NCBI GenBank assembly: GCA_964016885.1
Contig: OZ024760.1
Location: 7,130,001 to 7,194,000 of the forward strand
Direction: 5' to 3'
From: Eledone cirrhosa
Lineage: Eukaryota
Length of the DNA: 64,000 nucleotides
Below the pieces are notes generated by a model. That model was not told the DNA's origin. It made no database searches and worked only from the letters and a program-made list of their open reading frames with translations. Position numbers and translations under genes: made by a program. Shown piece after piece: positions 256 to 62,752 of the stretch (its first letter is position 1; each line of letters begins with the position of its first letter).

Positions 256-761
256 CGTCGGACATGCTGTGAGGCATAGAGTTACGCCCCTTACATTCTG
301 AGTTCAAATCTCGCCGAGGTTAGCTTTGCCTTCCATCCTTACAAGGTCGATAAAATAATGCACCAGTAATACACTGGAGTCGACTTAATCGACTCTCCTC
401 TCCTCCAAAATTGTTGGCCTTGTGCCTAAATCAGAAATCATTATATATGGGAGTATCTGAGTTCAAATCCCGCCGAGGTTAACTTTGCCTTTCATCCTTA
501 CGGGGGTCGATAAAATAAAGTACGAGTAATGCACTGGGTAATTGCTGGCCTTGTGCCTAAAGTAGAAACAATTATATATGGCAGTATCGGTAGAGGGTCG
601 GACGCCATGTTTTCCAGCATAGTTACGTCCCTTTACGATCTGAGTTCAAATCCCGGCCGAGGTTAACTTTGCCTTTCATCCTTACGATTCTTTGCTTAAA
701 CAGCCGTCGAAACGGCTTGAGCTCAGCCGTCGGGGTCTTACTGGTTCCTATATATATATAT

Positions 762-972
762 ATAGGAACCAGTAAGACCCCAAGTAGAGTGGGTAATAGG
801 AACCAGTAAGACCCCGTAGAGTGGGTAATAGGAACCAGTAAGACCCCGTAGAGTGGGTAATAGGAACCAGTAAGACCCCGTAGAGTGGGTAATAGGAACC
901 AGTAAGACCCCAAGTAGAGTGGGTAATAGGAACCAGTAAGACCCCAAGTAGAGTGGGTAATAGGAACCAGTA
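762..972. repeat. 36-37-bp minisatellite, ~6 copies
   Basis: taggaaccagtaagacccc(a)agtagagtgggtaa. Confidence 0.9.
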
Positions 973-1041
973 TCTACTACACAAAGTATTGAGTACTTTG
1001 GTGCGTTATGGTCTACCTGGTTCCTTACCACATTTCCTTCG

Positions 1042-1087
<46 letters not shown>

Positions 1088-6058: not shown

Positions 6059-19595
<13,537 letters not shown>

Positions 19596-22016: not shown

Positions 22017-22638
22017 TAACCTGTGTACATACATGCACACACACGTGTGTACACAAACACACACACAGATAACCTGCGTACACACACACACACATACAAA
22101 TAACCTGTGTACACACATGCACACACACGTGTGTACACATACACACACACACAGATAACCTGTGTACACACACATGCACACACGTGTGTACATACACACA
22201 GACACATGCGAATACACGTGTGTACATACACACACACATACATAGGCAAATACATGTGTGTACACACGCACACAGGCACGTGCAAATACACGTGTACACA
22301 CACATACATGCACACACACATGTAAGTGCACGTGTGTATACACACACACACACACATGCACACACACACACATATACACACATGCACATGGAAATACATG
22401 TGTATACACGTACATGCAAATATACGTGTGTACACACATACACACACATGCAAATACACTTGTACACACACACATACATACAAATACACCTGTGTACACA
22501 CACATGCAAATACACATGTATACACATACACACTCACACACATGGATAAATATATATATATTTATATATAAATATATATATATAAATATACATATATAAA
22601 TATATATATATATAAATATACATATATATATATATATT
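21935..22638. repeat. Complex (CA)n/(TA)n microsatellite
   Basis: Direct inspection. Confidence 0.92.
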
Positions 22639-22778
22639 TAAAGGTTAAACAAGGTTCAATGAATAAATCAAAGAATGAGTTTTACAATAGATTGGAAGCA
22701 CTCCACAGATATTGTTTTCCGGAGTTATTAATATTAATTCAAAATATTAACAAAAATAGACATTCGTGTGATCAAGTA

Positions 22779-22844
22779 TATTATATTATACATATTTCAG
22801 AGGTACTGAGCTATCTTCAAAGTATGTCCTCATCAGATAAAATA
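22779..22844 (-). ncRNA. Type I hammerhead ribozyme motif (degenerate stem II)
   Basis: Minus strand: tattttat-CTGATGA-ggacatact..agtacctct-GAAA-TATGTA-TA^atataata; downstream ACTCC..GAGTGCT motif at 22697-22725. Confidence 0.65.
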
Positions 22845-23104
22845 AGATGATGCATGACATACCCTGACTTAGTAGATGGTTAAGATTCAGTCATGGTAGT
22901 AAATAAGATATGACAAAACTCAATATTTATATACCTTAAGATTATATATATAGAAAGAAGGCATCTGTGGTACTTTTACCTGGCAAAAATCTAAACAGCA
23001 TCTCATCTAGATTGACTTGATCCCTAATCAGCTGAGCTATAACTCTTCCTGTGACCTTCATGACCTGGTCAACCAACTTTATATATATATACTGTATATA
23101 TATA

Positions 23105-24069
23105 TAAAGTTTGTTGACCAGGTCATGAATGTCACAGGAAGAGTTATAGCTCAGCTGATTAGGGATCAAGTCAATCTAGATGAGATGCTATTTAGATTTT
23201 TGCCAGGTAAAAGTACCACAAATGCCTTCTTTCTTGGAAGGCAACTGCAGGAGAAGTACCTAGCTAAAGGTAAACCCCTCTACTTGGCTTTTGTGGACCT
23301 GGAGAAAGCTTTTGATAGAGTCCCCTGTTCCATTATCTAGTGGGCTCTTAGAAAACTAGGAGTAGATGAGTGGTTTGTAAGAGAAGTACAAACCATGTAT
23401 AGAGGAACAGTCAGCAAGGTCAGAATTAACAATGACTATAGCTAAGAATTTATCTTGCAGTTTGATGTCTATCAGGGCTCAGTTCCTAGCTTTCACCTGT
23501 TTATCATCATCCTACAGGCTATAACTGAAGAGTTTAAGACAGGCTGGCCATGGGAACTTCTATATGCAGATGATCTAACCCTTATAACTGAATCTATGGC
23601 AGAATTAGAGAAAGAATTCCAAACCTGGAAACATGGCCTAGAATCAAAAGGTCTTAAAGTTAACTTGTCAAAGATCAAAGTTCATGTATATAGAAAGGAA
23701 AACAGGGCCCAGATTCCCTCAGGGAAAATAGTCTTGCTCAGTGTGAGGAAAGGAGTAGGTAGAAATTCCATCCTATGTGCCAAATACAAAATATGGGTAC
23801 ACAAGAGATGTAGTGGGATCTCAGGCAGGCTAGCAAAGAATGTAGGTTTTATATGTGGCCAATGCATAGGTGCAGTAAGTATCAAGAACCCACAGAGGAC
23901 TCTGTAGAAATAGTAGATAGTTATCTGGGTTAGTAAATTAGCAGTGGAGAAGGTTGTTTTAAAAGCTCTGTAGCCAGAGTGAGAACTGGTTGGAAAAAGT
24001 TCAGGGAGTTACTACTGCTAAATACAAAAGGTTTTTCCTTCAAAATGAAGGGAAGATTGTCTGATGCAT
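23105..24069 (+). mobile_element. Decayed RTE LINE RT fragment
   Basis: AFVDLEKAFDRVP, LLYADDL; internal stops. Confidence 0.88.
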
Positions 24070-34017: not shown

Positions 34018-35378
34018 GATTTTCTGTTTGGTGGATTGGCAGTATCGGTAGAGCGCCGGAGACTGTGCTTTGCAGCATAGAGTTATGGTCCTCTACGTTC
34101 TGAGTTCAAATCCCGCCGAGGTTAGCTTTGCCCTTCATCCTTACGGGGCCGATAATGCATTGAAGTCGACTTTCCCTTTCCCCAATATTGTGCCTAAATC
34201 AGAAACCATTGTTTAAATGGTCTGAGTCCTTGCACTTGTACAATATCTCGGTCTGTCTGTCTGTATATATTTATTACTCAATTCAGTTTTTGTGCCAACC
34301 CTTACCTATGGTCATGAATTTTGGGTAATGACCGAAAGAACATGATCGTGAATACAAACGCATTGGGGTCGATTTAATTGACCCCCCCCCCTCCCCAAAA
34401 AAATTGCTGGCCTTGTGCCTAAAGTAGAAATAATAATTATTATTATTATTATTGGGCCTACTCTGAGTATGTGTCTGTAAATTAAAGGTGGAAAACTGGG
34501 AGAGGGCACTTGCCCTGGTGGTCAGGGTCACTGTGGCCTTTTAATGGACTTTCTCCACAAATGTCCCTCGGAAGTCTCCCCCCTATTGGGGAATATTTCA
34601 TTGTTATTTTTTTGTTACATCTTCTGTTTTTTTTTTTTTACATGCAGAAATGCCCATTTGTACCGTCCTGTATTGTCCTGTCCTTAATATCTACTTTATG
34701 TAAACCCTTGTGGTTAATAAAGAAAGCATTATTTCCATTATTATTTTTATTGCGCATCATTTACAGCTCTGTGCATCTTGGGCATGGAGCAGTGTAGTTT
34801 TTGCTGATGTAGTCATCATCATCATCATCATCATTTCATGTCCGCTTTTTCCCTGCTTGCAAGGGTGGGACAGGAACTGATTCTGGCTTGATTTCTACAG
34901 CTGGATGCCCTTCCTAACACCAACCTCATTTACAGTGAGTGCTGGGTGCTTTTTAGCCGTGGCACCTCCACAAGCACTTTGCAGTGGAATGATATGGACC
35001 CCAGTCCCTATCATCTCATTTCTACAGCTGAGTAAACTGGAGCAATGTGAAATAAAGTGTCTTGCTCAAGGAAACAACACATCACCCGGTCTGAGAATTG
35101 AACTCACAACCTTTCGATTGCAAGGCCAATGCTCTAACCACTAAGCCATGTGGCTCCAATTATATATATATTATATATATAAATATATATAATTGAAAAA
35201 GTGGAGAATAACATGGTCAACAGTACAAAAAAGGGGATTTATTTACAGTTTAGTACTTGTAGTAATATGTGTGCATTGCCTAGTAGTGCTATCTTTTGTA
35301 TGTTCTATATATTTGTAAGTTCTGGAGTCTGGGCTATCTATCTGACTGCATGAATTTTTAACATTCCCAGAGCAGCTA

Positions 35379-35415
<37 letters not shown>

Positions 35416-35706
35416 GAGGTGTGAGAATGAAATTCAATTTCTGAATTTTTATATCTATTTTGTGTCTACAGAGGGTGGACTACAAGTAAAGAGAACAGCC
35501 TAATTTATAAAACATGAAATCAGATGTTAAATGATAATGATGATTATGATGATAGTGATGATAACAAAATAATAAAAAAAATAGAACCCCAAAACAAGTA
35601 GATAAGGTTATTTCTTAAAAGACTCTCCACCTTGTCAGAATTACATCGCTTCCTACGAGTCTGTAAGTTTTTATTTTTGATATCTTCATGGTTCTTTTGA
35701 AATGTC

Positions 35707-35746
<40 letters not shown>

Positions 35747-35857
35747 GAAAGTATAGAAATTATTGTGAGTGTGAAGCCAACAGTATTTCATAATATATAT
35801 ATATAAATATACAATATTAAGAAATGGAAACTATATTTATAAAACTGATCTATATTA

Positions 35858-35922
35858 TATTTTATCTGATGAAAGCACACCATAATTTAACTTGGTGTCC
35901 TTGAAATATGTATAATGAAATA
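35858..35922 (+). ncRNA. Type I hammerhead ribozyme, same family as 36670-36734
   Basis: tattttat-CTGATGA-stem II-GAAA-TATGTA-TA^atgaaata. Confidence 0.72.
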
Positions 35923-36052
35923 AATATGGTTTTATAAATATAGTTTCCATTTGTTAATATCGTAGTTTTACTCCAAATATTTGTTGAGTGCTTTATATCA
36001 GTTATAAAAATATTTGCTTGTTGTATCCCAACAATTTAAATAGAACTTTTAC

Positions 36053-36117
<65 letters not shown>

Positions 36118-36418
36118 TATGTGTATATATATATATAAATATATATAATTGAAAAAGTAGAGAATAAGATGGTCAACAGTACAAAAAAGGGGATTTATTT
36201 ACAGTTTAACAATTGTTTCACTGATAAATATGTCTAAAAATTGCTGAACACTAGAAGCAGTGCTACTCAATTTTAAATACGATGTTAGCTTGTAAACCTC
36301 TTGTTGAGTCAAACAACGCCATACGCTAAAACTATCCATAATAAGAAGTATTCACAACTTCTAACTGGATTACCTACAACGATATTTTGTTATCCTTTAT
36401 ATATATATGTATATATAT

Positions 36419-36865
36419 ATATACGATATTAATAAATGGAAACTATATTTATAAAACCATATTTATTTCATTATACATATTTCAGCGATACCACATTAAA
36501 TTATGGTATGCCTTCATCAGACAAAATACAATATATAACAGTTTTACAAATAGGTTTGACGTACCCTTTAAAATACAACCATTACTTTTGGAGGCTGTCT
36601 GGATGTCCAAAAGTAATGGTTGTATTTTAAAGGGTACGTCAAACCTATTTGTAAAACTGTTATATATTGTATTTTGTCTGATGAAGGCATACCATAATTT
36701 AATGTGGCATCCCTGAAATATGTATAATGAAATAAATATGGTTTTATAAATATAGTTTCCATTTATTAATATCGTATATCTACTCCAAATACTTGTTGAG
36801 TGCTTTATATCAGTTATAAAAATATTTGCTTGTTGTATCCCAACAACTTTAAATAGAACTTTTGC

Positions 36866-36868
<3 letters not shown>
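36419..36868 (+). mobile_element. Penelope-like pLTR/retrozyme-type element: 174-bp inverted arms plus unique tail, inserted in (TA)n
   Basis: Arms 36419-36592 and 36606-36779, 13-nt loop; hammerhead in each arm; a shortened relative lies at about 35809-36052. Confidence 0.7.
36670..36734 (+). ncRNA. Type I hammerhead ribozyme (inverted copy at 36464-36528 on the minus strand)
   Basis: tattttgt-CTGATGA-aggcataccata..tgtggcatccct-GAAA-TATGTA-TA^atgaaata. Confidence 0.75.
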
Positions 36869-36915
<47 letters not shown>

Positions 36916-36974
36916 TAGATATTTCCGAAGAAAAAGCTATATAATTAGAAAGTGAACAACACAACATATAACTA

Positions 36975-37042
36975 CTCCATAACCAAAGGTTTCAGGATCC
37001 CAGACACTATTAATATATGTCTAGATCGTTCATCAGACAGAG
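36975..37042 (-). ncRNA. Type I hammerhead ribozyme motif
   Basis: Minus strand: ctctgt-CTGATGA-acgatctagaca..tgtctgggatcct-GAAA-CCTTTGG-TT^atggag. Confidence 0.65.
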
Positions 37043-37433
37043 AGGTTATCTAACCTGTTCACCTTCTAAATATATATATATACATATATTCATGTTGAAG
37101 ACACACATTTACAATGCACCATATATTTTATTTTGAATCAAATTTTTCTATGTTCATATTTTAACCCTTTAGAATTTACATTATTCCATATTTACTATTA
37201 TATTTTCACGTTAATTATCTCACATAATATCTCACCTGTGAGATTTTGATATTATTTATTTTGAGAACAATACCTTAACATCAGTACGAGTGGCCAGTTA
37301 CGGCCAGTTTGAATAGAAAGAGGTGAGAGAATTGAAGCCAGATAGGGCCGGTTTAAATGCTAGAGGGTTAAGTCATTTTCATGTTGTATTTAAGTGGACA
37401 AGGTGCGCCTTATACATGAGTATAAACAGTATA

Positions 37434-37504
<71 letters not shown>

Positions 37505-37510
<6 letters not shown>

Positions 37511-37880
37511 ATATATAAGAACAAAAGATGGTTAAAAGAGTTCCATGTATTTTATTATGCGCATTTCAAAAACAAATATCATCATGCAATAATATTTGTG
37601 TTTTCATCAGATAAAACAGGAGGACATGATATGAAGGTTAAAAAACACTTGTGGATAGTGCAGTTTTAAATCATATCATGTCTTCCTATTTTATCTGATG
37701 AAAACACAAATGTTATTGCATGATGATATTTGTTTTTGAAATGCGCATAATAAAATACATGGAACTCTTTTAACCATCTTTTGTTCTTATATATTATGTA
37801 TACTCCAGTCCTACAAACTGTAGAGTGCTTCTTATCCGATATCTGCATTGCTTTATTGTACTACAATAAAACTCACCTCC

Positions 37881-37882
<2 letters not shown>
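37505..37882 (+). mobile_element. Penelope-like pLTR/retrozyme-type element, second family: ~130-bp inverted arms plus tail, in (TA)n
   Basis: Arms 37505-37634 and 37671-37800; hammerhead; tail tactcc..gagtgct. Confidence 0.7.
37687..37757 (+). ncRNA. Type I hammerhead ribozyme (inverted copy at 37548-37618 on the minus strand)
   Basis: tattttat-CTGATGA-36-nt stem II hairpin-GAAA-TGCGCA-TA^ataaaata; stem I 8 bp; palindromic stem III ATGCGCAT. Confidence 0.82.
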
Positions 37883-37924
<42 letters not shown>

Positions 37925-38309
37925 TATATCATCATCATTATCATCTAATGGCCCACTATCTCTGCTAGCAAGGGTTGGATGGGTCTTTAGAGACTGAAGT
38001 GGGGCTACTGACCTCCCACACAGGTTGGGGGGGTTCACACCTCACTTTCATACAGTTCTGCATTCTACCAAGGGCAATTAATCATGGTATTAGCGTTATT
38101 CTGTCTTCAAGAAGCCACTGGTAAATGAATTAATTATCTTATGTTGTTTATTACATAACTAAAAAGCTCTGTAGCCTACATAGAGCACTCTCTTTTCCTT
38201 TACCTTTCCTATGGAAACACTTTATATATATATAGTGAAAGATTGAAGAGTAACATGGTCGGCTGTACAACTGGATTACCTACAACGATAACTTGTTATC
38301 CCATATATA

Positions 38310-38653
38310 TCATCATCATCATCATCATCATTTTACGTTCACTTTTCCCTGCTTGCAAGGGTGGGACGGGAACTGATTCTGGCTTGATTTCTACAGCCGG
38401 ATGCCCTTCCTAACACCAACCTCATTTACAGTGAGTGCTGGGTGCTTTTTTGCCGTGGCACCTCCACGACCACTTTGCAGTGGAATGATAGGGACCCCAG
38501 TCCCTATCATCTCATTTCTACAGCTGAGTAAACTGGAGCAATGTGAAATAAAGTGTCTTGCTCAAGGAAACAACACATCACCCGGTCTGAGAATTGAACT
38601 CACAACCTTTCGATTGCAAGGCCAATGCTCTAACCACTAAGCCATGTGCCTCC
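38310..38653 (-). mobile_element. tRNA-derived SINE family 2 with RTE-type tail (copies at 34814-35157, 53650-53972)
   Basis: Minus-strand head ggcacatggcttagtggttagag..gagttcaattctc; (TGA)n tail; three near-identical copies. Confidence 0.8.
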
Positions 38654-39409
38654 TATATATATATATAAGCTAGAATGGAGGCAGTAAAAACTTGTTAGAC
38701 CATTACTCACTAGAGTACTTGATACCTGGGGTGGTAGAGTGTGGTAATATGGAGGATTCGGGGCCCCGACGGCTGAGCTCCTGCCGTTTCAACAGCTATT
38801 TCCGAACTGCAGTAAAAGTAGTCTGGGTGTTTTGTAATCCAGAGGTCAACAGCTTCAATTCCTAAGTCGTGTGGGATGTTAGTATATATTTATTACTATT
38901 ACACATCCTTTGAAGCATGCAGGCTTCATACATACATACATATATACATGGTGGCTGCCAACTCGTTTTCGAGTACGGCCACTACTTTATATCCATGTAG
39001 GAGAACTCCTACCGAAGCGCTGAACGAGTGTGACATTTTAGTCCAGCCAGCGACTTGAAAACTCTGGTACAAACTAGTGACAATTACTGACACATAGTGC
39101 TGGGCCCATGGTACCATGTGACGACAAGTGCAGAGAGATCTCCAGATATAAAGCAATGCCTGTGCCGTGAAGATTTTATAGTGAGCAAAGGCACTGCACA
39201 AAGCCAGTCCCACTCTCTTAACCAAGATGATATTTACCAAAAAGAAGAACAAGTCAACATCATTGGATACCATCAGGGTTGCAGGTGTTATATCAGAGTT
39301 TTCCTTCTCCTAGAATTCTGCCTTGACAAAGGCTAAGGGGTCATCTCTCCCGGGACAAAGGCTAAGGCGTCATCTCTCCCGGGACAAAGGCTAAGGGGTC
39401 ATCTCTCCC

Positions 39410-40121: not shown

Positions 40122-41385
40122 TTTTTTGCCATGGTCAACTTTGTCTTTCATCCTTCTGGGGTTCATAAAATAATGTACCAGTAACACACTGGGGTCAATC
40201 CCCCACCCACTCCAAAAGAAATTCTGGCCTTGTGCCTAAATCAGAAAATATTATTTAACCCTTTAGCATTCACATTACTCTATATTTACTATTATATTTT
40301 TATGATAAACGCTTTATCTTACATAAATATCTCACATAATATCAAATCTACGAGATTTTGAAATTTATTTTGAGAACAATACCTTAACATCAGTATGAGT
40401 GGTTGGTTACAGCCAGTTTGAACAGAAAGAGGTGAGAGAATCCTGTCTGGATATGACCAGTTTAAATGTTAAAGGATTAATGTAACTTCCGAGGTTTATA
40501 AAATAAAATACTGGTACAAAGTGGGGTAGAATTCTGTTATCACTAGGTCATGCATGGTATTAGGGTTTATGTGGCTATATGAGGCCAAATCCTGTCTTTT
40601 GTGGGGTGGGGTGCCCTATCTTGTCAAATACTGACCCTAATTTCCAAATTTAACTTGTAGTTTATTGTAAAATATTTTTTTTTTTCTTGAAATTTTATCA
40701 TACCAAAAAGATATGGCACAAAGTAGACTCTTTAGGGGTTGTATTTGAAGATTTTAAATGATATAATTTAACCCTTTAGCATTTACATTACTCTATATTT
40801 ACTATTGTATTTTCACGGTAAAGGCTTTACCTCACATAATTATCTCACATCATATTGAATTTACGAGATTTTGATATTTATTTTGAGAACAATACCTTAA
40901 CATCAATATGAGTGGGCAGTTATGGCCGGTTTGAACAGAAAGAGGTGAGAGAATTCTGGCCGGATATGGCAGGTTTAAATGCTGATGGGTTAAAGTAGGA
41001 AAAAAACCTTCATTTTTTTTTTTCTGAATGGGGACCAAAATCCCACCATGCAATAAAGCTCTTAGAATCAATATAATCACTATTATTTTTTCCAATTGGC
41101 AGTATCGGTGGAGGGTCGGATATGCTTTCCAGCATAGTTACGTCCCTTTACGATCTGAGTTCAAGTCCCGCCGAGGTTAACTTTGCCTTTCATCCATACA
41201 GAGGTCGATAAAATAAAGTACCAGTAATGTACTGGGTAATTGCTGGCCTTGTGCCAAAAGTAGAAACAATTATTTTTTCCAGCACCATCTCAAAGACTTT
41301 CATGTCCTCCCCACCATAAATTGCTGTTCTTGTGCCTAAATAAAATAATCATTATTTTTTTCCAGAGCCATCCCAAATCGCAATT

Positions 41386-62752
<21,367 letters not shown>

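Follow-up and report, generated by a model that had tools for sequence, protein, structure and literature searches.

Genomic Setting and Anatomy of the Two Palindromes

The DNA analysed here is a 64-kb stretch, referred to throughout as the window, of a genome that is likely that of an octopod. It contains two tandem AADAT-like (aminoadipate aminotransferase) paralogs on the + strand, with exons at ~6059–19592 and 41386–62749. The AADAT-like exon that was tested is 82–85% identical to proteins of Octopus bimaculoides and Argonauta hians, and at most 68% identical to the others listed. Two palindromic elements, A and B, lie between these genes. An earlier note on this DNA, made from the letters alone, had described two (TA)n-flanked palindromes of shared architecture at this site, and that description is confirmed, with arms of 177 nt in A and 130 nt in B.

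Element A begins with an inverted, tail-less arm (36416–36592, - strand; core start 36520, predicted cut after 36472) that meets (TA)n ~50 nt beyond its predicted cut. A 13-nt spacer (36593–36605) separates this arm from the direct arm (36606–36782, + strand; hammerhead 36672–36732, core 36678, predicted cut after 36726), which has a proximal 3' end at 36779 and is followed by a tail (36782–36867, +) that opens with an ACTC/GAGT hairpin and whose distal 3' end at 36867 abuts (TA)n. The arm length of 177 nt includes a few TA-like end bases, and the arms differ at 3 mismatches. Element B has the same layout, with an inverted, tail-less arm (37505–37634, -; core 37610, predicted cut after 37556), a 36-nt spacer (37635–37670) that is an imperfect hairpin in itself, a direct arm (37671–37800, +; hammerhead 37689–37755, core 37695, predicted cut after 37749) in which stem III is a perfect palindrome, and a tail (37802–37884, +) with an ACTC/GAGT hairpin at its start and (TA)n at its end. 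The arms of B differ at 4 mismatches. Both elements have (TA)n on both flanks, and the private differences between arms number 2 internal ones in A and 3 in B. Each tail (83–89 nt) is present on one side only, so the inverted repeats are not terminal.

The interval described in the earlier note, 36419–37882, also contains a further hammerhead between A and B (element F, core 37036, -), as well as an unrelated repeat (~37156–37371). The latter belongs to a repeat family with TTAACCCT-type ends (37156–37371, 14207–14417, 19060–19274, 40254–40480, 40763–40993, 54717–55161, and 62446–62590), which we take to be piggyBac-like. Two TTAACCCT-ended copies make a 444-nt palindrome (93%) at 54718–55161. 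Another repeat is found in three pieces beside (TA)n tracts (35172–35260, 36128–36404, and 38236–38310).

Hammerhead Cores and Covariation

A strict type I hammerhead descriptor was run over the window, with 100 Markov shuffles as the control. The descriptor returned 8 distinct cores, compared to a shuffle mean of 0.13 (max 2), and passes three of the four palindrome arms. The left arm of A is missed by the descriptor owing to a G-G mismatch of its own within stem II (the right arm has one stem II mismatch, the left arm one extra). Adding this arm gives nine cores in all, namely the four palindrome cores (CTGATGA...GAAA...TA) and one each in elements C, D, E, F, and G. The assignment to type I follows from the CUGANGA, GAAA, and UH core joined by stems I, II, and III in type I order. 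As had been claimed, every palindrome arm holds such a hammerhead, with CTGATGA, stem II, GAAA, a palindromic or near-palindromic stem III, the TA, and stem I, and the cuts predicted earlier after 36726 (A) and 37749 (B) fall at the same positions in this analysis.

The families are unalignable in sequence, and the stems covary across the nine cores, in agreement with the earlier statement that pairing is kept while sequences differ between families. Over 9 cores and 15 pairs, 88.9% of the cells pair and 10 of the 15 pairs change on both sides. The covariation score of 0.543, calculated from rows that are not independent (three come from family A and two from family B), was reached by 0/500 shuffles, and slid controls gave 0.10–0.24. 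Stem III starts with A-T and is palindromic in A–E and G. In 8/9 cores, stem II is mismatched (C-C or C-T) at its fourth pair while the three pairs below it covary; this kept C-Y mismatch possibly makes a tertiary contact with stem I.

The Rfam check that had been proposed yielded nothing at gathering score in the window, and no hammerhead family is present among the 30 Rfam matches at E up to 10 in 35700–38000. Weak miRNA-type matches were set aside, as they reflect hairpins only. A combined hammerhead and ACTCC pattern had 0 matches in viral contigs. Its sole match in metagenome contigs (L001) was rejected as a chance match, as it lies in a bacterial-looking coding region and has neither the stem pairing nor the second half of the tail motif.

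Related Elements in the Window

Element C (35806–36053, +; core 35866) is a member of family A, 91% identical, with one hammerhead, a full tail, and (TA)n on both sides. Its 5' end carries a ~39-nt inverted cap joined at a 12/13-nt microhomology, which is the microhomology between the two sides of an extended stem I. Element D (22631–22945, -; core 22836, cut after 22787, tail hairpin 22725) represents a third family and has (TA)n on both sides without a long inverted arm. Directly adjoining D is a LINE RT fragment arranged as a 283-nt palindrome (97%; 22952–23234) around a TA-rich centre, perhaps a fold-back from the same insertion.

Element E (17640–17907, -; core 17747) is tail-less, with (TA)n 56 nt past the cut and a 111-nt hairpin upstream. 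Element G (7583–7638, -; core 7632) has a (CAT)n-headed repeat in place of the 3' strand of stem I. Both are intronic, and both hammerheads in AADAT-like introns are antisense to the gene (n = 2). Element F (36930–37068, -), located between A and B, has complementary ends, a GUU triplet, and a non-palindromic, Hydra-like stem III (ACC-TTT-GGT). No long sense-direction open frame was found in the sequence upstream of D, E, F, and G.

Family H comprises (TA)n-flanked copies at 61805–62031 (-), 704–1045 (+), and 38665–38808 (-). The first of these, H1, has the order (TA)n, inverted repeat, tail hairpin (61879), (TA)n, and contains a degenerate 3' half of a hammerhead only, lacking CTGANGA; its relatives at 709 (+) and 38790 (-) retain GAAAC..GTC. 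That a palindrome, a tail hairpin, and (TA)n occur together in a copy whose hammerhead is incomplete indicates that the ribozyme is not required for the layout. The H1 spacer matches the reverse complement of the start of its own tail, and the copy at 765–970 contains approximately six tandem 32–34-nt units of spacer/tail-start inverted pieces, which suggests that the template was switched repeatedly at the hairpin. The idea that family H is a different ribozyme was dropped, with no Rfam support. An orphan tail hairpin of the GCTC/GAGC version is located at 38166–38222 (+) and ends in (TA)n; no hammerhead was recognised upstream of it.

The long inverted arms and TA flanks are also what would be expected of MITEs or fold-back DNA transposons with TA targets, in which the hammerhead would be a passenger or a chance occurrence, and elements of this kind do exist in the window (37156–37371). 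This explanation requires terminal repeats, in contrast to those of A and B with their one-sided tails, and it does not accommodate C, D, and E, which share the sequence type without long arms, nor the two discrete 3' ends described below. The covariation of the hammerhead stems across unalignable families, together with the single-arm copies, refutes the MITE reading, which is left with hardly any probability.

The Tail-Start Hairpin

In five families of the window, a paired RCYC…GRGY-RCT hairpin stands at the start of the tail. The one-sided tail opening ACTCC..GAGTGCT, reported in the earlier note, is confirmed in A and B; C (35970, +) and D (22725, -) carry it too. The motif was defined on A and B, and its occurrence in D, 62 nt past the cut, has a chance of ~1e-5 for a position of this kind. 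A looser pattern, with the first four bases paired, is found at 6 sites compared to 1.87 expected in the window, a weak excess indicating that the tail motif alone is not rare. Four of these six sites lie 53–62 nt past a hammerhead cut and all six meet (TA)4 within 57–89 nt, which is true of 4% of positions; the independent cases are D, 38166, and 61879.

Similar hairpins are visible by eye in Hydra-clade consensus sequences of Penelope-like elements (PLEs) in the PMC8557442 supplement. In Hydra-2_Amil, Hydra-2_Ajap, and Hydra-1_Crog the hairpin follows a T/A-rich stretch and lies 38–47 nt past the cut; it is GCTC/GAGC followed by ACT in the first two, the hairpin in Hydra-2_Ajap having been expected beforehand and then found, and imperfect in Hydra-1_Crog. 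Among the six new Hydra-clade consensus sequences in that supplement, all three long-ended ones thus have a like hairpin, as judged by eye with no alignment or score, and the three short-ended ones end 36–47 nt past the cut. Such a hairpin also opens the consensus of Hydra-1_Ajap (GCTC/GAGC, by eye) and that of Hydra-1_Crog (GCCC/GGGC, by eye), as it should if the tail is where the following unit begins; at the start of Hydra-1_Obim no clear hairpin match was seen by eye.

Searches of the Craig supplement with short strings are less specific. The exact window tail heptamer occurs there at 10 places, none at a Hydra 3' end, and the two stem III 14-mers occur 0 times. Two variant heptamers occur 22 and 12 times; the 18 and 12 occurrences listed fall mainly within coding sequence that is unrelated, and the heptamer by itself is thus uninformative. 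The main text of PMC8557442 does not contain the terms 'hairpin', 'stem-loop' or 'stem loop', and no title on a PLE tail-start hairpin was listed in literature searches. The layout of A and B is already published for PLEs; the tail-start hairpin is the new lead.

The shared hairpin likely marks where the element's enzyme starts copying. A broader and decidedly tentative proposal is that the hairpin may be a conserved recognition or start signal of the RT-endonuclease of (TA)n-targeting PLEs, causing both the one-sided tail and the mirror arm via a proximal start or stop of the cDNA, and that hammerhead plus hairpin may form a ~150-nt cis module copied in trans to very high numbers in octopod genomes. 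If this were true, compensatory change would have maintained the hairpin across corals, sea cucumbers, copepods, and octopods, and hammerhead-hairpin modules would seed perfect dsRNA hairpins in octopod genomes.

Folding and Predicted Ribozyme Behaviour

With the arms head to head, a transcript of either strand passes through the antisense arm first and reaches the sense hammerhead only in the second arm. The earlier note expected a transcript of either strand to contain a self-cleaving motif and to be able to fold into long dsRNA. The latter expectation is borne out by the predicted folds: the four full-palindrome folds have minima of -210 to -280 kcal/mol, with -273 kcal/mol given for a palindromic RNA. 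Self-cleavage by such a transcript is doubtful, as forcing stems I and II in the full palindromes costs 89–94 kcal/mol and their pairing probability is 0.0 in 4/4 folds. The hammerheads are therefore predicted to be locked away inside read-through palindrome RNA. For transcripts starting at the centre, the forcing cost is just 3–6 kcal/mol.

Monomeric stem III is unpaired (<=0.001) in 15/15 folds, while the calculated energy of the stem III self-duplex is -10.5 (B), -6.0 (G), -2.2 (A, C, D), and +0.9 (E) kcal/mol. The hammerhead of D in its own context lies 9–17 kcal/mol above the minimum and is not the favoured fold. Since the two hammerheads of a palindrome are on opposite strands, they would not dimerise within one transcript. 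With the stems predicted to be locked in the palindrome and monomeric stem III unpaired, any cleavage would depend on a transcript running outward and on a partner or protein.

Family A in Public Reads

Family A was followed in public data by aligning 36593–36868 (spacer, right arm, and tail of A) to 4 of the 16 listed runs at 84% likeness. The runs used were X1, X5 (another organism), X14, and X15 (RAD-seq); X6–X12, with small shares, were left out. Organism A contains 0.69 of the words; it is possibly a relative and not the same species. Matches were found in 5250 contigs of X1 and 79 of X5, and in 33,322 (X14) and 36,158 (X15) reads, numbers that are not copy numbers, as a few loci dominate in RAD-seq.

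Two discrete 3' ends are observed for family A, 53 and 141 nt past the predicted cut. Among the listed loose ends, which exclude a further 485, the proximal end runs into (TA)n behind 36779 in 49 contigs (X1) and in 5692 (X14) and 6537 (X15) reads, and the distal end runs into (TA)n behind 36867 in 21 contigs of X1 and 2 of X5. The same two classes are seen within the window, where the short-ended copies (A-left, B-left, and E) meet (TA)n 45–56 nt past the cut and the long-ended copies (A-right, B-right, C, and D) 134–149 nt past the cut.

The inversion joints are variable. Thirteen of the 15 joints listed (of 20) switch strand, every one at a different pair of places, and 6 of these 13 are located at 36659–36661, beside the microhomology used by C. 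Three joints involve the tail (36660/36791, 36660/36793, and 36645/36826), indicating that inverted pieces are not always tail-less. Joints detected at 84% likeness with short sides may be library chimeras or other repeats. Positions 36593–36602 of the A spacer have zero depth in 4/4 runs. Junctions near that of A do recur: in X1, one 393-nt contig (record 1) forms a palindrome whose junction is no more than ~6 nt from that of A, and a strand switch at 36606 is seen in 5 X14 reads. The arms of this contig are 27 and 4 letters off the window, which, if real, is a misfit with fold-back.

These joints bear on two explanations that differ from an insertion product of a PLE. The first is that the palindromes are chimeras of assembly. 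Palindromes beside microsatellites can be misassembled, and the A spacer is uncovered in all four runs; the arms nevertheless have their own private differences, the independent contig has a similar palindrome, raw reads show strand switches, and the layout is common to three families, so that an artefact deserves next to no credence. The second explanation is that these are non-LTR retrozymes, in which tandem monomers self-cleave, circularise, and re-insert. The short palindromic stem III would suit dimers (self-duplex energies above), molluscs have retrozymes (PMC7229834), and retrozymes derive from pLTRs (bioRxiv 10.64898/2026.07.22.740005). Against this, no tandem direct monomers are found among the nine window cores, no tail-to-head joint occurs among the joints listed, both 3' ends run into (TA)n rather than into a next monomer, and only two short joints that go back (20 and 45 nt) are present among the 15 listed. 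The retrozyme reading is largely refuted by these observations and is very improbable.

Sequence variation in family A fits a selected ribozyme. Among the best 40 of 61 variants, the only core position hit is the free N7 (36682), a pattern with a chance of ~0.05 for the variants shown. A G>A change at 36722, at 45% of X1 depth, makes stem III a perfect palindrome, and G-C to A-U variants of stem II are present at 36686 and 36713. With a consensus T at 36708 and no listed variant at 36712, each arm of A is left with one private change. The arms of A agree at 11 family-polymorphic places (chance ~0.003, assuming independence), which indicates a single template or homogenisation.

Origin and Proposed Insertion Mechanism

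Taken together, the anatomy, the covarying hammerheads, the two 3' ends, and the variable joints suggest that A and B are probably 5'-truncated 3' ends (pseudo-LTRs) of Penelope-like retrotransposons, with the inverted arm made during insertion. An alternative that differs from this reading only in the template RNA is that they are self-standing, non-autonomous, SINE-like PLE families, in which short master RNAs comprising hammerhead and tail hairpin, some of which may already be palindromic, would be transcribed independently and copied in trans by a PLE enzyme. Depth falls ~400-fold toward the 5' end (from 835,594 at the core to 2,012), a drop that blends truncation with subfamily divergence, and a plateau starts at ~36606 and stops there. 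This plateau, the very large number of matches that contain little sequence 5' of the hammerhead, the second palindrome in X1 with its near-identical junction, and the absence of a long sense open frame upstream of D, E, F, and G would all suit short master RNAs, as would the finding that pLTR cis sequences suffice for trans mobilisation in Adineta (PMC3846280). In contrast, the exact spacer of A is without depth in every run, the joints vary, the 5' ends differ among the window copies (A, C, D, E, and H1), and a palindromic RNA would form the -273 kcal/mol hairpin described above. SINE-like families are judged unlikely, though worth keeping in mind.

For the preferred reading, truncated PLE ends, the following route is proposed. 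A GIY-YIG endonuclease/RT encoded elsewhere would nick (TA)n, and cDNA synthesis would begin inside the element RNA at one of two points, a distal start 141 nt past the hammerhead cut, which would yield the tail, or a TA-rich proximal start, which would lie 53 nt past the cut, immediately ahead of the tail hairpin, and yield no tail. Synthesis of the cDNA would halt early, and the cDNA would fold back on itself where it meets a short internal complement, in many cases the extended stem I. The folded cDNA would then copy itself up to the TA-like proximal point, which would join the target. Alternatively, priming from both nicks on one RNA could give the same product. The hammerheads would come down from the parent element, where they would likely need a partner or protein, since stem III is a 2–3 bp palindrome, and read-through RNA of the finished palindrome would form a long hairpin that locks them.

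The earlier note saw no PLE RT/GIY-YIG ORF in the window, and none was found in a six-frame scan, in which PLE motifs gave spurious matches only. A scan of 20 of the 101 window ORFs returned only RVT_1, AP-endonuclease, and PHD matches of LINE type and no GIY-YIG. As no RT/GIY-YIG partner was found, we infer PLE and clade membership from features of EN+ PLEs that are seen, namely a hammerhead near the 3' end of the pLTR (53 and 141 nt), a one-sided tail, and an inverted copy. Of the proposal that the elements are ribozyme-bearing PLE derivatives, the PLE origin stands, on the basis of the covarying hammerheads, the (TA)n, the two 3' ends, and the inverted tail-less arm; the notion of a retrozyme-type or self-standing palindromic system is not supported. 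The parent is, by a small balance of the evidence, of or close to the Hydra clade.

Significance

The finding itself is ordinary for PLEs, with a known layout, here in an octopod. The origin of the one-sided tail and inverted copy is an open question in the portion of the PLE literature covered. Copies of this kind are short and abundant; they define two ends to the base, offer a large set of inversion joints, and supply a candidate signal hairpin open to mutation in an existing in vitro PLE assay. Nine cores per 64 kb and thousands of contigs suggest that many octopod PLE stumps are missed by Rfam, and repeat annotation could take such stumps for MITEs. Palindromic stumps would be long dsRNA if transcribed, and long dsRNA from palindromes would bear on RNA editing in cephalopods.

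Comparison with Known Systems

The closest counterparts of A and B are the insertions of EN+ PLEs, which carry an inverted 5'-truncated copy and a one-sided 30–40-bp tail (PMC8557442, Fig. 2). Head-to-head arms of pLTR size, a palindromic junction, a one-sided tail, and solo pLTR-type copies are common to both. The tail of A and B is longer (83–89 nt), A and B are without an ORF, and a target duplication is unreadable inside the (TA)n here. Inverted pLTRs, solo pLTRs, and junction palindromes have been reported, with self-priming as the reading (PMC3846280), and 31 recently active PLE families are described in O. vulgaris, in a source whose covered portion lacks the words hammerhead and ribozyme (PMC13282606).

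Hydra, Neptune, and Naiad elements target (TA)n, and an octopus Hydra element exists (PMC8557442). The Hydra clade (Hydra-1_Obim in Octopus bimaculoides, Penelope-13_HM, Hydra-2_Amil, Hydra-2_Ajap, and Hydra-1_Crog) shares with the window elements the (TA)n target, a hammerhead near the 3' end, and short and long end classes. Penelope-13_HM itself, which targets (TA)n, has an inverted 5' copy as well as hammerheads on the two strands (PMC8557442). The listed Hydra-clade consensus sequences end 30–48 nt (10/25), 63–70 nt (2/25), 88–153 nt (11/25), or further (2/25) past the cut. A like hairpin is located 38–47 nt past the cut (by eye) compared to 53–62 nt in the window elements. Hydra-clade hammerheads have a non-palindromic A-C..G-T stem III in 25/25 listed cases, unlike the A-T palindromic form of A–E and G. 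The Hydra form, which is a reading of File S2 rather than a stated criterion, is found in the window in F and family H. The window elements also have a longer stem II than Hydra's, with the C-Y mismatch at pair 4, and no linked ORF. Thus target, end classes, and hairpin would agree with Hydra membership, while the form of stem III disagrees, and the (TA)n preference is shared by Neptune and Naiad as well. Naiad was rejected as the parent because octopus Naiads, in the source consulted, target (TA)n without canonical hammerheads.

Metazoan PLE hammerheads (PMC4209133) are likewise of type I with a palindromic stem III and occur as many divergent families per genome, mostly as single copies, with some opposite-strand pairs 100–700 bp apart, as here. 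Such pairs are ascribed there to truncated PLEs, and the hammerheads are described as dimer dependent and of low activity. Unlike them, the window hammerheads have no bulged base after A9 and no fixed G10.1-C11.1, the first pair being A-U or G-U; octopods are not named in the one supplement file of PMC4209133 searched. In Poseidon of Anolis (PAc), the tail is bounded by two internal RT start sites, both target strands are cut and extended, and the hammerhead needs protein and is dispensable for insertion in vitro (PMC11167929). Two internal RT starts bounding the tail and an AT-rich target would be shared with the window elements. The PAc hammerhead overlaps the ORF start, whereas here frames from ATGs in or after the hammerhead close at once. 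Non-LTR retrozymes resemble the window elements in being non-coding and PLE-derived with a type I hammerhead. They are defined as tandem repeats (PMC7229834; bioRxiv 10.64898/2026.07.22.740005), direct in orientation and yielding circular RNA, in contrast to the window elements, which are single or inverted copies.
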